Shown here one piece after another: positions 8,883 to 56,915 of a DNA stretch of 64,000 bases. Origin of the DNA: Rubrobacter sp. (GTDB lineage Bacteria; Actinomycetota; Rubrobacteria; Rubrobacterales; Rubrobacteraceae); contig JACCWD010000090.1 of the NCBI GenBank assembly GCA_013697825.1, positions 1,318 through 65,317 of the forward strand, in the 5' to 3' direction. How positions within the stretch are numbered: position 1 is the first letter of the stretch; each line of letters opens with the position of its first letter. The notes under the pieces are model-generated. The model searched no databases. It was given only the letters and a program-made list of their open reading frames with translations, and was not told the origin of the DNA. A program made the position numbers and the translations under genes.

Positions 8883-8970
8883 GGGTCGCTTCGCCCCGGT
8901 TCCCGGTTCACAGTTTTCGGTTCTCGGCTCAAAACTGAAAACCGGGAACTGTGAACCGGAGCGGAGCGAC
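8883..8970. repeat. Heptamer-array inverted-repeat element, short hairpin form (GAAC-type words)
   Basis: GGTCGCTTCGCC, then CCGGTTCCCGGTTCACAGTTTTCGGTTCTCGG, loop, CTGAAAACCGGGAACTGTGAACCGG, then AGCGGAGCGAC. It fills the whole mutL-stop to EamA-start gap. Confidence 0.7.
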
Positions 8971-9903
8971 ATGACCGACGCCCGCGAACGCCTCGTCGGG
9001 GTTCTTCTCGTGGCTTCGGCGGCGGCGATATGGGGGACGCTCGGGCTTGTGGCGAGCTTCGTGTACGCGGAGGGGGTTTCCTTCGAGGCTTTCGTCCTCA
9101 CTCGGGCGGGCGGGGCTTTTCTCGTGGTTTTGGCTTTCGTGGTTTTGACGGGGCGAGCGGCGAGTTTGCTTGTTCGGGGGCGGGATTTTGTTTTGCTCAT
9201 CCCGCTCGGCGTCTTCGCGATCGGGTGCTTTTATTTGTTTTATTTTTATACGATTCAGGAGAGCGCGGTCGGCACGGCGGCGGTTCTTCTTTACAGCTCC
9301 CCGGCCTTCGTGGTCGTTTTGGCGCGGATATTTTTGGGCGAGGCTTTGAGTTTGCCGCGCATCGCCGCTCTCCTCCTCACCGCCTCGGGCATCGGCCTCG
9401 TCGTCGGGGCTTATGACCCCTCATCGCTCGATGTGCGGCCTTTCGTCGTTCTCACGGGGCTTGGGGCGGGGCTTTCGTTCGCGATGTACTCGGTGATCGG
9501 GAAGCCTTTGACAGGGAGGCTCCCGGCGTATGTAATGAATTGTCATATGCTCGGGATCGGGTCGGTCGTGCTTTTCGTGGCCGCCATCCCGACGCTCGGG
9601 ACTTTGAGTGGGCTTTCCTTCGGGGTTTATGTTCTCCTCGTAGTGTCGGCGGTCGGACAGACGGCGTTTTCGTACGCGCTTTATACGACGGGGCTGAGGA
9701 GGATCGAGGCCGGACAGGCTTCGATCATCGCGACCGTGGAGGTCGTCGTCGCCGGACTCGTCGGGGCGATATTCCTCGCCGAGGAGATAACGGTGCTCAA
9801 AATCTTCGGGGCGTTTCTCGTGATCTCCGGCGCGATTCTCGCCCAGTTCAGGCTTCGGAAGGCTCGCACAGTCCCCGTCGAAGAAGCGCATCCACCGCGA
9901 TGA
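8971..9903 (+). CDS. EamA/DMT family transporter
   Basis: 310 aa with about 10 TM helices and a two-fold EamA-like repeat structure. Confidence 0.75.
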   Translation: MTDARERLVGVLLVASAAAIWGTLGLVASFVYAEGVSFEAFVLTRAGGAFLVVLAFVVLTGRAASLLVRGRDFVLLIPLGVFAIGCFYLFYFYTIQESAVGTAAVLLYSSPAFVVVLARIFLGEALSLPRIAALLLTASGIGLVVGAYDPSSLDVRPFVVLTGLGAGLSFAMYSVIGKPLTGRLPAYVMNCHMLGIGSVVLFVAAIPTLGTLSGLSFGVYVLLVVSAVGQTAFSYALYTTGLRRIEAGQASIIATVEVVVAGLVGAIFLAEEITVLKIFGAFLVISGAILAQFRLRKARTVPVEEAHPPR

Positions 9904-9963
9904 AACGATGTCCCGTCCGATATTCCCACCCACGAAGGGCGCGAAGGGGAATGTATGTCGAAA

Positions 9964-10446
9964 TCAGGCTTCGGAGGGTTCGCGTCTTTCCCGGCGAAAG
10001 AGGAGCGAGTCCACGCCCACCCGCCCGAGCGGGGCGAGGATTATGTGGACACACAATGCGATGAGGCCGATGTCGCGGAGGAAGGCGAGCCAAAGGTTCG
10101 ATGACTCCTCGCCCGCTCCGAAGCACCCGCAGTTTATGTCGAGGCCGCGTACGGCTCCTTGAAGAAGGGCGACGGTGAAGACGGCCATGAGCGCGGTCGT
10201 AAGCCGCGCGGTCGGCTTCGTGAAGAGGCCGACTATGAGATAAAGCCCGATGAGCACTTCGGCGTATGGAAGCGCGTACGCCGAGAACGACACGAACCAT
10301 TCCGGGAGGGCGAGTCCGTACGAGCGGATGGCGGCGGCGAAGGCTCCGGGGTCGAGCATCTTCGGGATGCCCGCGGCGATGAACACGCCGCCGAGGACGA
10401 GGCGGGATACGAGGACGGCGTACGAGTTCGAGAGGGGGTTACGCAA
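9964..10446 (-). CDS. DoxX/MauE family membrane protein
   Basis: 160 aa, 4 TM, with the N-terminal LVLGGVFIAAGIPKMLDPGAF motif typical of MauE/DoxX. Divergent from a thioredoxin-fold gene. Confidence 0.6.
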   Translation of the reverse strand: MRNPLSNSYAVLVSRLVLGGVFIAAGIPKMLDPGAFAAAIRSYGLALPEWFVSFSAYALPYAEVLIGLYLIVGLFTKPTARLTTALMAVFTVALLQGAVRGLDINCGCFGAGEESSNLWLAFLRDIGLIALCVHIILAPLGRVGVDSLLFRRERREPSEA

Positions 10447-10538
10447 AGAGTCTCCGGCGGTCGCTGTGGCCTTTAACCACGACGGCGGCTACTATATCAT
10501 TTCGCTTCGAGACGCTAATCCAAAAAAAGGTCTTTTCC

Positions 10539-55100: not shown

Positions 55101-55403
55101 GACCTCGGCGGCGGACTTGTCGTATTTCGCCATGTTCCCGACGGGCATCCCGCGTCCGTCGTCGGTGACGGAGACGGAGTTGTCCGGGTGGACGGTTATG
55201 AGAACCTCATCGCAATGCCCCGCGAGAGCCTCGTCAATGGAGTTGTCCACGATCTCCCACAAGAGGTGGTGGAGACCCCTCGGCCCGGTCGAACCAATGT
55301 ACATCCCCGGTCGCCGTTTAACGGCCTCAAGTCCTTCGAGAACCTGAATCGAATCTGCGCCGTATGAATTGTCAGCTTGCTTTGTCACGGAATTAGTCGC
55401 CAA
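52158..55403 (-). CDS. gyrB: DNA gyrase subunit B (intein-containing precursor)
   Basis: GHKL motifs ([36 protein letters not shown]) and the Toprim EGDSAGG, then the intein, then [18 protein letters not shown]. 1081 aa. Confidence 0.97.
52773..54077 (-). mobile_element. GyrB intein (435 aa) with HNH-type endonuclease region
   Basis: It starts CFSGNTKV directly after EGDSAGG and has a TPDH block. The HNH-like motif is [29 protein letters not shown]. It ends ..GVFVHN before SAKQGR. Confidence 0.9.
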
Positions 55404-55556
55404 AGAAAGGGACCCTCCTCATCTCATGGGTGGAGTTGCGGAAACCGTTGTCGTCTATGTTTTCGTAAACGAAGTTTCGCACCCGAAGATTGTAACACAT
55501 CTTGTAGTCTTTCCCAACCCCCGGCTCTCGGCGTTTGCGGCTTAAATAAGCCTTTT

Positions 55557-56693
55557 TCAGCCGACCCCCGCATCCCCCACACCACCGCTTGTAGTGTCGG
55601 AGATTGTACCACCAGATATGCGTATGACCCTCGCCCGCCCGAGCACCCCTTCCTCAAAGTACTCGAGGTTCGTCGTCGAGACGATGGCCTGCGCGCTTTC
55701 GAGGAAATACTCCGCGAGATAGTCCCGGCGGCGTTCATCGAGTTCGCTCATAACGTCGTCCATGAGGAGGATCGGATCCTCCCCCGTCTCGCTCCGCACG
55801 TGATCCCTCGCCGCGAATTTCAAGGCGAGCGTCGCAAGTCTTTGCTGCCCCTGCGAGCCGTACACGTTCAAGTCCACCCCGTCGAGCGAGACCTCGAAGT
55901 CGTCTCGGTGCGGCCCGACGGAGGTGGTGCCGCGCTCGACGTCGGCGCTGTGCGCGTTTTTAAGGGCTTCGGAATAATCGTCCGGTGTCGCGCTATACGA
56001 ATAGGCGACCGCGGCCTTCTCAGGGCCGTACAACGCCCTCATGGAGCTTTTGAAGTTCTCGTCGAGGGGACGAATCGCCGTCGCCCGGCCTTCGAGAAGT
56101 GTCGTGCCGAGTTCCACGACCTTACGATCCCACGTTTCGAGGGTCTTTCCGGAGGAGAACCCGTCCCGGATTCGACGGAGGAGCTGGTTGCGTTGCTGAA
56201 CGGCTTTCGCGTACTCGCCGACGGCCCTCGCATACGACGGTCGGAGCGACGAAAGGAGCGCGTCGAGGAACTCGCGCCGATCCGAGGGCGCTCCCTTCAC
56301 GATGCGGATGTCGTCGGGAAAGAATGTGACGACCCTCGCCCCCGCCCCCCCGGCGGCATAGTCGGCGAGCGACTTCGCCGAGGCCCCGTCCACGGTGAGC
56401 CGCTTCTTTTGCCCCGGCGCATACCCGACCGCGACGGAGCGTTCGCCGCCATCGCCTCCGAGGGCGACACGGCCTTCGACGCGGGTGAAGTCCTGGCTCC
56501 ACCGGACGGTCTCCGCGTCGGTGGAGGTTCGAGGTGAAGAGCCGGTCAAAGCGAAGGAGATGCCTTCGAGGAGGTTCGTCTTTCCCTGCGCGTTCTCGCC
56601 GACGGCGATGTTCAGGCCTGGGGTGAAGAGGGCGGCCGCGTCGGCGTAGCTCCGAAAGTTGACCATGCGGAGTGCGCGGACATGGGGGGTCAT
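55557..56693 (-). CDS. recF: DNA replication and repair protein RecF
   Basis: N-terminus MTPHVRALRMVNFRSY, Walker A GENAQGKTNLLE, signature GSQGQQR, and Walker B LLMDDVMSELD. The longer ORF upstream covers a repeat element. Confidence 0.9.
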   Translation of the reverse strand: MTPHVRALRMVNFRSYADAAALFTPGLNIAVGENAQGKTNLLEGISFALTGSSPRTSTDAETVRWSQDFTRVEGRVALGGDGGERSVAVGYAPGQKKRLTVDGASAKSLADYAAGGAGARVVTFFPDDIRIVKGAPSDRREFLDALLSSLRPSYARAVGEYAKAVQQRNQLLRRIRDGFSSGKTLETWDRKVVELGTTLLEGRATAIRPLDENFKSSMRALYGPEKAAVAYSYSATPDDYSEALKNAHSADVERGTTSVGPHRDDFEVSLDGVDLNVYGSQGQQRLATLALKFAARDHVRSETGEDPILLMDDVMSELDERRRDYLAEYFLESAQAIVSTTNLEYFEEGVLGRARVIRISGGTISDTTSGGVGDAGVG

Positions 56694-56694
56694 G

Positions 56695-56915
56695 GGTCGC
56701 TCCCTCCGGACTTGAAAACCGGGAGTCGGGTCGCTCTCGACCGTCTCTTTTGGGTCACCTTCGTATCCCCGCCCGAGAACCCCTCGCCGGACTCGAACGA
56801 TGCGTCGGCGGGCGCGGGCATCGCCTCGTGTATTTCCCGACTCCCGAAGCGAGTGGAGGCCGAGGAGGAGCGACGCGACCTCCCGACTCCCGACTCCCGG
56901 CGAGCGACAGCGAGC
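56695..56915. repeat. Heptamer-array inverted-repeat element, ~220-bp form (GGGAGTC words)
   Basis: GGGTCGCTCCC.., AAAACCGGGAGTCGGGTCGCTCTCGAC, ... CGTGTATTTCCCGACTCCCGAAGCG .. CCTCCCGACTCCCGACTCCCGG. It fills the yaaA-recF gap exactly. Confidence 0.7.

Follow-up and report, generated by a model that had tools for sequence, protein, structure and literature searches.

Inverted heptamer arrays in the spacers of an uncultured Rubrobacter and their turnover between related species

How do intergenic spacers come to be filled with tandem 7-nt words that change from site to site and are matched, at each site, by an array of the reverse-complement word? This question is raised by a stretch of DNA from an uncultured Rubrobacter (the window: the whole 64,000 nt analysed, with a G+C content of 61.7%), in which an earlier note, made from the sequence alone, had cited ten intergenic sites with such words. 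The arrays described are present at all ten. They build hairpin elements of at least three word superfamilies, and between related species these elements differ in presence, in word and in number of units. The explanation that we favour, and to which we give about an even chance of being right, is a lineage-specific burst of selfish, non-coding hairpin repeats resembling REP/REPIN or MITE elements.

Heptamer arrays, their partners and their modules

Arrays were defined as three units with at most three mismatches. Under this definition, TRF and period scans returned 16 period-7 hits in the window, which merge into 13 arrays, compared with 3.4±2.0 hits (maximum 10) in shuffles preserving local composition. 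The same scan gave no array of period 8, 10 or 11; the five to six hits of period 9 were all coding, and those of period 6 likewise reflect coding periodicity. The two main words stand 20- to 50-fold above expectation, as CCGACTCCCGACTCCCG has four matches against 0.08 expected and CCTGAANCCTGAANCC has 12 against 0.51, both with at most two mismatches. For nine of the 13 arrays the best inverted match within 1.5 kb reaches 13 of 14 bases or better, exceeding the median best inverted match of 10-11 of 14 in random 3-kb control windows, and a general inverted-repeat search recovered the arm pairs independently. The reverse-complement partners that the earlier note described are thus confirmed, and the enrichment, the partner scores and the folding z-scores of the stems (-3.6 to -8.8) together indicate structured inverted-repeat elements rather than chance, as it had supposed.

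The strictly intergenic placement first claimed was borne out once over-long calls of open reading frames (ORFs) had been trimmed by Pfam and synteny. All arrays are then intergenic and begin 0-18 nt past stop codons or RNA 3' ends, and about 10 of the ~27 spacers of at least 40 nt in our own gene map are occupied by such an element. The features are listed below.

8881-8970, plus strand: GGTT hairpin in the mutL/EamA spacer, with a start codon at 8971
15057-15156, plus strand: GGTT hairpin in the tRNA-Leu/protein kinase spacer; minimum free energy (MFE) -47 kcal/mol, z -3.6
28894-29140: nested GGGAGTC palindrome filling the spacer between SDR and 208-aa genes
37003-37241: long GGGAGTC element between divergent cupin and HTH-AAA-TPR genes; outer pair CCGGGAGTCCGGG and CCCCGACTCCCGG, then TTTTTT
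56694-56916: long GGGAGTC element filling the S4_2/recF spacer
12347-12370: left arm GGTTTCA GGCTTCG GGTTTCA GG, 5 nt past the GCS2 stop codon
13443-13475: right arm CCTGAAA CCTGAAA CCCGATG CCTGAAG CC, abutting the AsnC-like stop codon
33641-33668: orphaned arm of NNTCAGC words, adjoining the tRNA-Gly 3' end
40423-40452: arm GGTTTCA GGCGTCA GGTTTCA GGCTTCA GG, 18 nt past the TPR-gene stop codon
40652-40686: ancestral bidirectional terminator hairpin AAACGCCGCC..GGCGGCGTTT, enclosed by two TTCAGG arms
40704-40727: arm CCTGATG CCTGAAA CCTGAAG CC, abutting the SdhB stop codon at 40729
44214-44377, minus strand: 170-nt TTCAGG element directly past the RNase P RNA 3' end (44381), with arms at 44357-44377 and 44214-44240
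6499-6550: spacer with GC modules only, palindrome GGTCGCTCCGCGACC plus GGAGCGACCGAAGGGAGCGACC, abutting the start codon at 6498 (minus strand), with no heptamer layer

These sites had been taken to share one architecture, a claim refuted by the existence of at least three word superfamilies, namely short GGTTNNN hairpins, long nested GGGAGTC elements and TTCAGG/TCAGC arms, and by pairs that wrap a terminator or a gene. A single family was likewise rejected on MAFFT alignments of the long copies, which give modular similarity only, and on their common 13-nt core motif, which scarcely exceeds chance. In the two GGTT-type hairpins (8881-8970 and 15057-15156), GGTTNNN words pair with NNNAACC words round an A-rich loop, within an outer pair, GGTCGCTTCGC or GCTCGCCGTCGCTCGCC facing GCGRAGCGAC(C), that is itself composed of 5-6-nt TCGC/GCGA words. 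At the first, the outer arms GGTCGCTTCGC (8884-8894) and GCGGAGCGAC (8960-8970) enclose arrays of GGTTCNC (8895-8927) and GAACCGG (8931-8959), and the RNA has an MFE of -54.4 kcal/mol (z -6.6); at the second, a left module GCTCGCCGTCGCTCGCC and a right module CGAGCGGAGCC..GGCGAAGCGACC accompany arrays of GTTCTNA (15074-15097) and AAGAACC (15098-15127).

In the three long copies (28894-29140, 37003-37241 and 56694-56916), arrays of GGGAGTC-type words alternate with GC modules, round a core of 100-130 nt. The copy at 28894-29140 is layered as A (GGTCGCTTCGC), W1 (GGGAGTCGGGAG), B (GTCGCGTCGCTCCGCTCGCTTC), W2 (GGGAGTCGGGAGTCGG), a core of ~105 nt, W2', B' and W1', with a 23-nt W1-B junction at 28911-28933 on the plus strand. 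The interior at 37003-37241 contains the palindrome GGTCGCTTCGCGACC, a GGGAGGC array (37028-37050) and 2.7 units of CCCGACT (37195-37213). On the minus strand, the copy at 56694-56916 reads TGCTCGCTGTCGCTCGCC, 2.7 units of GGGAGTC, a B module, GGGAGTCGGGA, the core, CCCGACTCCCGG, GGAGGGAGCGACCC and the recF ATG, with the 23-nt junction at 56867-56889; two independent assemblies of this element are identical, with no variation between them. The TTCAGG/TCAGC type consists of arms without GC modules (40423-40452 with 40704-40727; 44214-44377; 12347-12370 with 13443-13475; 33641-33668). The arm at 40423-40452 is 89% complementary to 40700-40727. The partner distance of about 1.1 kb noted earlier belongs to the pair at 12347-12370 and 13443-13475, whose arms bracket an arginase-family gene (12565-13416, minus strand).

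The conserved termini that had been reported are real as shared modules. GGTCGCTTCGC has exactly four occurrences, and 12 with one mismatch against 5.3 expected; the TTCAGG-type sites, however, have no GC-rich termini, and where present the termini double as Shine-Dalgarno leaders. Indeed, the module GCGRAGCGAC(C) stands directly before four start codons (6498, 8971, 28893 and that of recF at 56693) and includes GGAG at Shine-Dalgarno distance, so that the repeats, for instance at recF, can provide a gene with a new ribosome-binding site and start codon. The module is also found solitary, as the 15-nt palindrome GGTCGC-NNN-GCGACC, and in a third Rubrobacter species (L135, 8780-9040) an outer module of the 6499-6550 type encloses ~190 nt more element. 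The GTATTT motif, thought to be a subterminal part of the elements, is better read otherwise: two or more of the four occurrences form the T-rich tail of a small GC hairpin, one such hairpin being an ancestral terminator. A transposase or subterminal site was therefore dropped as the leading interpretation, and the corresponding stretch is not conserved in the sister species.

Gain, replacement and covariation between relatives

Orthologous loci were gathered through RecF, GCS2 and SdhA homologues, and extra loci of relatives through one metagenome scan with a 21-nt junction as query. The relatives comprise L130 (95%), the sister species (94%), L127 (89%), L124 (86%), L125 (77%) and the third species (L135, ~84% nucleotide identity), together with R. 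radiotolerans (L128). Period-7 arrays occur beyond the window, as the earlier note required of its elements, with 14 in 43 kb of the sister species and nine in 26 kb of the third species, next to the 16 in the 64 kb of the window; none was found in 43 kb of R. radiotolerans or in 21 kb of L125.

The comparison of orthologous spacers showed insertion as well as replacement between relatives. In L124 and L125 there is no spacer between S4_2 and recF, which overlap by 4 nt. The sister species has there a spacer of 109 nt with a GTTGTTG/CCAAYAA hairpin (MFE -61.9, z -8.8), and the window the 222-nt GGGAGTC element, with the same outer modules as in the sister species. In the SDR/208-aa spacer, the 7 nt of R. 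radiotolerans contrast with 253 nt in the window and with 406 nt in the sister species, whose core, surrounded by degenerate GGGNNNN arms, is homologous to that of the window (z 12.7). Similarly, the element of the tRNA-Leu/kinase spacer is present in the window, and ~130 nt are lacking there in R. radiotolerans and L127. Between the convergent GCS2 and AsnC genes, R. radiotolerans has a spacer of 10 nt and L127 a 66-nt two-word hairpin without the arginase gene, and a 93% relative has the gene and no left arm. These last two arrangements weaken the idea that the arginase gene was cargo moved by the arms; insertion of the gene into a hairpin is the simpler reading.

At other loci one hairpin stands in the place of another. 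Past the 3' end of the RNase P RNA, and between identical flanks, the 42-nt AGTGAAT/ATTCACT hairpin of the sister species corresponds to the 170-nt TTCAGG element of the window. In the mutL/EamA spacer the third species keeps the outer module with the words GGTTATT/CCAATAA, the words of the window being CCGGTTC. The 145-aa/NYN spacer retains a plain terminator hairpin in the window, L130, L124 and L125, and in the sister species a GGTTATT hairpin has taken its place. At three of these loci (S4_2/recF, RNase P RNA 3' flank, mutL/EamA), the inner word differs on both arms while outer modules or flanks are kept. Together, these comparisons show a recent gain of the elements within one Rubrobacter sub-clade, in which they enter or replace very short spacers, and a turnover at palindrome centres, with outer modules persisting as inner arrays and cores are exchanged.

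The SdhB region shows arrays wrapped round an older structure. The terminator hairpin at 40652-40686, which scores terminator-like, is kept between SdhB and tRNA-Gly in L129, L130 and R. radiotolerans, and in L130 the arrays (TCAGCNNN)x4 and (GCTGANNN)x4 together bracket it (L130:12586-12712). These two arrays have a period of 8, and therefore the unit length is not strictly 7 in this element class. The lone array at 33641-33668, which it was thought might be another element, is homologous to the right arm of L130, (GCTGANNN)x4; an array it is, but an orphaned arm instead of an independent element. A block of ~8.9 kb (31842-40421), extra in the window relative to the other species, has split the old arm pair and left this orphan behind.

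Copies were also found at unlinked places. An identical 23-mer spanning two module types lies at 28911 (plus strand) and 56867 (minus strand) and recurs as a junction in the third species, at three more separate loci; one of these encloses a GGTTTTT hairpin where the other copies have GGGAGTC and core. In addition, a near-identical inner hairpin with the loop GGCAAAWACAAAAAACC is present at two non-orthologous loci, mutL/EamA of the third species and S4_2/recF of the sister species, and the elements thus include paralogous copies. Slippage is seen in the right arm of the sister-species 145-aa/NYN hairpin, where CCAACAA is repeated 12 times versus four in two strains or samples.

Word changes matched between the arms were tested on an alignment of six GGTT-type hairpins with 22 stem pairs, compared with 500 shuffles. 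In this alignment 90.6% of the cells pair, versus 82.7±1.8 after shuffling (none of 500 reaching 90.6%), and double-sided changes affect nine of the 22 stem pairs, a number reached by one shuffle in 500. The covariation score is 0.276 versus 0.138 for shuffled alignments, above all 500 of them, and at most 0.094 when partners are slid. The only invariant part of each GGTT-type word is GGTT/AACC. Covariation and the different words at three orthologous sites both uphold the arm-matched word changes of the earlier proposal. In folding, the sense strand is more stable in five of eight cases, which is not a consistent folding bias, and a test based on G-U pairs was also uninformative. Therefore, constraint at the RNA level and at the DNA level are not separable here.

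Known heptamer repeats and the origin of the elements

The elements, in which the earlier note recognised no described family, belong to a described but unexplained kind, inverted heptamer arrays. Heptameric microsatellites in general are known to be in excess in the intergenic DNA of bacteria. Such arrays are known from Xanthomonas (PMC4692102), and tandem heptamer repeats from the STRR of cyanobacteria, from Beggiatoaceae (PMC4679880) and from Geobacter (PMC2700814). A literature search found no report of such repeats for Rubrobacter or Actinomycetota, and we did not find described the nesting with TCGC-word modules, the word difference at orthologous sites or the turnover at palindrome centres.

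Xanthomonas genomes have 186 (GGGANTN)n arrays, including 70-75 inverted (convergent) pairs per genome (Rehm 2015, PMC4692102); the arrays have at least two units, lie on average 28 nt past the upstream ORF, are ~90% intergenic and vary between sister species, and neither they nor the GGGGA(C/T)T repeats of Nostoc have an established function (PMC4692102). The Rubrobacter arrays resemble both in their 7-nt unit, in starting from two units and in lying intergenically near the end of the upstream ORF, and those of Xanthomonas also in their convergent pairs and variation between sister species. In contrast to Xanthomonas, the Rubrobacter genome, an actinobacterial host, has several unrelated words in short arrays (2-4 units), nested with GC-rich modules of 5-6-nt words and with cores of 100-250 nt. 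Exact GGGAGTC arrays are nevertheless present in Xanthomonas and Luteimonas contigs. The heptanucleotide STRR of cyanobacteria (Mazel 1990; Vioque 1997, via PMC4692102 and PMC2858038), as far as these accounts describe them, are likewise tandem heptamers of several word families per genome in intergenic positions, but are often long, are described mainly as direct repeats and come without a description of outer GC modules. The cyanobacterial contigs that we fetched contain inverted pairs with Rubrobacter-like words, e.g., GTTGTTT/CAACAAC and TATCAGC/GCTGACN. The STRR are also said to flank both sides of helix P12 of the RNase P RNA.

The TAACTGA heptamers of Beggiatoaceae, cyanobacteria and Bacteroidetes form 169 direct sets and one inverted set (MacGregor 2015, PMC4679880). 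They share with the present arrays an occurrence of the same heptamer in distant phyla by no known transfer mechanism, an intergenic location, 2-6 copies and positions adjoining start codons, and differ in being nearly all direct and upstream of genes. Geobacter metallireducens has 49 copies of four tandem GGACCGG units, and sites of five MTYCTGA units displayed as paired, hairpin-like (PMC2700814); unlike the Rubrobacter elements, these are annotated as putative regulator-binding sites or regulatory RNAs and occur within genes too, and they come with no comparison of gain and loss. REP, BIME and REPIN sequences (PMC3733652, PMC3116915) are similar as short extragenic palindromes or hairpin doublets after genes, often within operons, patchy among close relatives and with compensatory stem evolution. 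The loops of REP are insertion targets of some insertion sequence elements, as cited in PMC4692102 (Tobes & Pareja 2006). The Rubrobacter stems differ from REP in being made of tandem words instead of a unique palindrome, in reaching 250 nt and in their nested layers, and by inspection the REP tag GTAG/CGTC is absent at the modules GGTCGC-NNN-GCGACC and GCTCGCYGNCGCTCGCC. MITEs are defined by terminal inverted repeats with a target-site duplication; inverted arms are present here, and the duplications at the filled sites are ambiguous ones of 3-4 nt (see below).

Catalogues of heptanucleotide repeats go back to 1990 for cyanobacteria, with Xanthomonas, Beggiatoaceae and Geobacter following later, and in the accounts available to us no origin or function is established. 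The Rubrobacter clade offers what seems to be a young and datable burst, absent in close relatives, with different words at the same site and unit differences at the strain level, and this makes the landing sites, movement as opposed to growth in place, and arm matching testable by comparative genomics.

The stems are built of tandem short words, inner 7-nt ones (GGTTNNN, GGGAGTC or GGNNTCA) and outer 5-6-nt ones of the TCGC type, the 5' arm carrying the G/T-rich word and the 3' arm the complementary one. Under the favoured explanation, the elements would enter a compact genome at its very short spacers, just past stop codons or the 3' ends of RNAs, where they could replace or wrap the local terminator hairpin. 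Gain, loss and swap would act mainly at the centre of existing palindromes, giving an onion-like nesting of old outer modules and young inner arrays. The arms would stay matched if the whole hairpin were inherited, or converted, as one copy into hairpin centres or spacers next to stop codons; slippage would then alter the number of units, and variants that do not pair would be removed or corrected. Copies still permitting termination and translation of the neighbouring genes would be retained. In transcripts they would form stems of 20-45 bp able to act as 3'-end, terminator or processing hairpins, and the GGAGCGAC end could give a ribosome-binding site where an element abuts the downstream gene. 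Of the structured mobile or RNA element proposed at the outset, the structure, the enrichment, the insertion and replacement between relatives, the unit-number change between strains, the paralogous copies and the covariation of the arms are demonstrated; mobility as such, the centre-targeting mechanism and the RNA-level role are inferences of ours.

Several observations weigh against selfish hairpin repeats. There is no transposase, RAYT (Y1 transposase) or other candidate mobilising gene in the 64-kb window, nor any transposase in the fetched loci, and the comparisons of empty and filled sites show no clean target-site duplication, only ambiguous ones of 3-4 nt (TGA; GAAT; TTTT). Similarity between the cores of the long copies is weak, a common 13-nt motif having 20 matches against 10.8 expected at two mismatches, and the Rubrobacter sequence compared amounts to ~250 kb in all, not whole genomes. 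A fixed polarity with the G/T-rich word first, and a heptamer vocabulary common to several phyla, are not explained by such repeats. Moreover, arrays sit on both sides of the ancestral terminator beside SdhB, in L130 as in the window, and GCCAAAGGCG (15133-15142), inside the 15057 element, repeats the flank CGCCTTTGGC (15046-15055) in inverted orientation, both of which are easier to reconcile with local template switching than with a single insertion. They favour a non-mobile origin, in which heptamer microsatellites born by slippage beside hairpins would be copied across by intrastrand template switching, so that palindromes grow in place and arm matching is purely mutational. The unit number that differs between two sister-species strains, the confinement of turnover to palindrome centres and the over-representation of heptamer microsatellites in bacteria, as cited in PMC4692102 (Mrazek 2007), agree with this origin, which we nevertheless consider unlikely, if still credible, since unlinked loci, and another species too, have identical 23-nt composite junctions, one inner hairpin recurs with its loop at non-orthologous loci, 109-222 nt arose inside a 4-nt gene overlap with no hairpin there to seed them, and the same few words are found in many phyla.

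The positions of the elements, just past stop codons or RNA 3' ends, could instead reflect a benefit to the host, through selected RNA structures (terminators, RNase III or other processing sites, stabilisers of mRNA between cistrons) or through binding-site arrays for a protein reading ~7 nt per subunit, e.g., with cold-shock or S1-type domains; the binding of Csp, S1 or CsrA was suggested by MacGregor (PMC4679880), and most Xanthomonas repeats of this sort are transcribed (PMC4692102). Stems of 21-28 bp result from arrays of 3-4 units, stem pairing is preserved by compensatory changes, and T-runs follow several stems (37235-37241; 44209-44213, minus strand; 13476-13484), with none at 8970 or 56694, where a start codon comes next; a terminator consensus scan flags inner hairpins and not the array stems. 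However, Rfam gives no match inside the elements even at E<=1, the sense strand is the more stable one in only the five of eight cases mentioned above, the copy at 37003 lies between divergent genes, sister species have different words at one and the same site, and the same operons exist without elements in close relatives, showing them to be dispensable. Both forms of host benefit therefore seem to us rather improbable as the origin of the elements, and a selected RNA or protein-binding role would be compatible with selfish repeats as a secondary effect. The proposal of G-quadruplex-forming repeats, made for the GGGAATC repeats of Xanthomonas, is the least probable: GGGAGTC does fit the (GGGANTN)n definition (PMC4692102), but most arrays have 2-3 units, that is, fewer than the four G3 tracts needed at least, the GGTTNNN, GTTCTNA and GGNNTCA words have no G3 tract, which makes a quadruplex implausible for most words, and a complementary partner nearby favours a duplex stem.

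The polarity of the arms deserves separate consideration. An exact-pattern scan for 2.4 GGGAGTC units gave more than 119 contigs, from Cyanobacteria, Xanthomonadales, Acidobacteriota, Gemmatimonadota, Chloroflexota, Verrucomicrobiota, Planctomycetota and Bacteroidota. In these other phyla, 61 of 150 GGGAGTC arrays have an inverted partner within 600 nt and three have a direct partner only, and a scan agnostic to the word gave 68 inverted pairs with many words, several of them of the Rubrobacter vocabulary. Of the 16 Rubrobacter pairs, 13 have the G/T-rich word on the 5' arm, as do 59 of the 68 from other phyla, and GGGAGTC comes first by 60:1. This arrangement is identical when read from either strand, and therefore neither the direction of transcription nor that of replication explains it. 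Such polarity would be expected of break-repair scars, in which hairpin tips or spacers would break, both 3' ends would be extended by templated repeat addition, the G/T-rich strand being made toward the break as in telomeres, and the ends rejoined, so that inverted arrays flank captured DNA. The newest material does lie at palindrome centres, the arms do bracket genes or cores, and Rubrobacter is a radiation-resistant genus. In contrast, the outer TCGC modules show the opposite G/C polarity, the order of variant words in the two arms of one locus (L023) fits neither a fold-back nor a symmetric-addition model, and multi-module copies are common to several loci. We know of no bacterial enzyme that adds repeats by templating in this manner, and consider this origin very unlikely.

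A different lead comes from 23S_rRNA_IVP genes, which encode bAvd-like four-helix-bundle proteins. The loci fetched from other phyla include three complete genes of this kind, and all three lie between inverted heptamer arrays, with a different word each time:

L062, 609-1053: Phormidium, words GGGAGTC
L064, 5207-5645: Xanthomonas codiaei, words CCGGGAC
L070, 1170-1675: Blastocatellia, words TGTCCGT

There is no such gene in the window, and a literature search found no paper linking IVP genes with heptamer arrays. Because of these three genes, the polarity in 59 of 68 pairs and the turnover at palindrome centres, one may speculate that heptamer hairpins across the bacteria form a single class of mobile elements that target hairpins, akin to 23S rRNA intervening sequences. 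The cargo-bearing form would carry a bAvd-like IVP gene between inverted word arrays, the short hairpins of Rubrobacter, Xanthomonas and cyanobacteria would be miniature derivatives, and the arrays would be written or renewed by a templated polar process with the G/T-rich strand toward the centre. Taken in full, with cargo, miniatures and templated writing, this is decidedly improbable. If true, templated polar writing would explain the arm matching, the word swaps at a fixed site and the small vocabulary across phyla.

Gene map and neighbouring genes

The window includes the chromosomal origin region, with the order rnpA, yidC, jag, dnaA, dnaN, S4_2, recF, gyrB and gyrA, and the RNase P RNA and two tRNAs are its sole Rfam matches reaching the gathering score. 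The origin itself is marked by dense clusters of DnaA boxes (TTATCCACA/TGTGGATAA) at 58355-58740, between dnaA and dnaN, and at 61256-61279, upstream of dnaA; in the sister species the cluster is longer still (L122 8080-8450). Spurious or over-extended long ORFs cross repeat elements at 28267-29244, 15057-16841, 55557-56981 and 36379-37403, because the elements have no stop codons, and automatic gene calls in this genome are likely mis-started at repeat-filled spacers. In practice, such spacers mislead ORF callers and place long stems inside operons.

The extra block of ~8.9 kb at 31842-40421 consists of three ORFs of unknown type, an FG-GAP/DUF11 surface protein, a cupin and the HTH-AAA-TPR gene, with no integrase seen in it; in the relatives, a NUDIX gene, a small gene, tRNA-Gly and the terminator lie directly beside SdhB. 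The HTH-AAA-TPR gene (37251-40404) does not stay in one frame but is broken across several, perhaps because of slippage frameshifts or because it is a pseudogene. At 37628-37684, where its HTH ORF (37251-37736) joins the AAA_16 ORF (37726-) in a different frame, there are 4.1 copies of a 14-nt repeat, CCCCCACTTCCCAT, made of two alternating heptamers. The gyrB/gyrA spacer has a lone weak array of three CCGTGTT units (52084-52104), without an inverted partner and with an MFE per nucleotide of -0.06, which is probably not part of the family. The adjoining genes are both enlarged, gyrA (48221-52081) encoding 1286 aa versus 869 aa in R. radiotolerans and gyrB (52158-55403) 1081 aa versus 646 aa. 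Both probably contain inteins, because their sister-species orthologues carry intein and LAGLIDADG domains.

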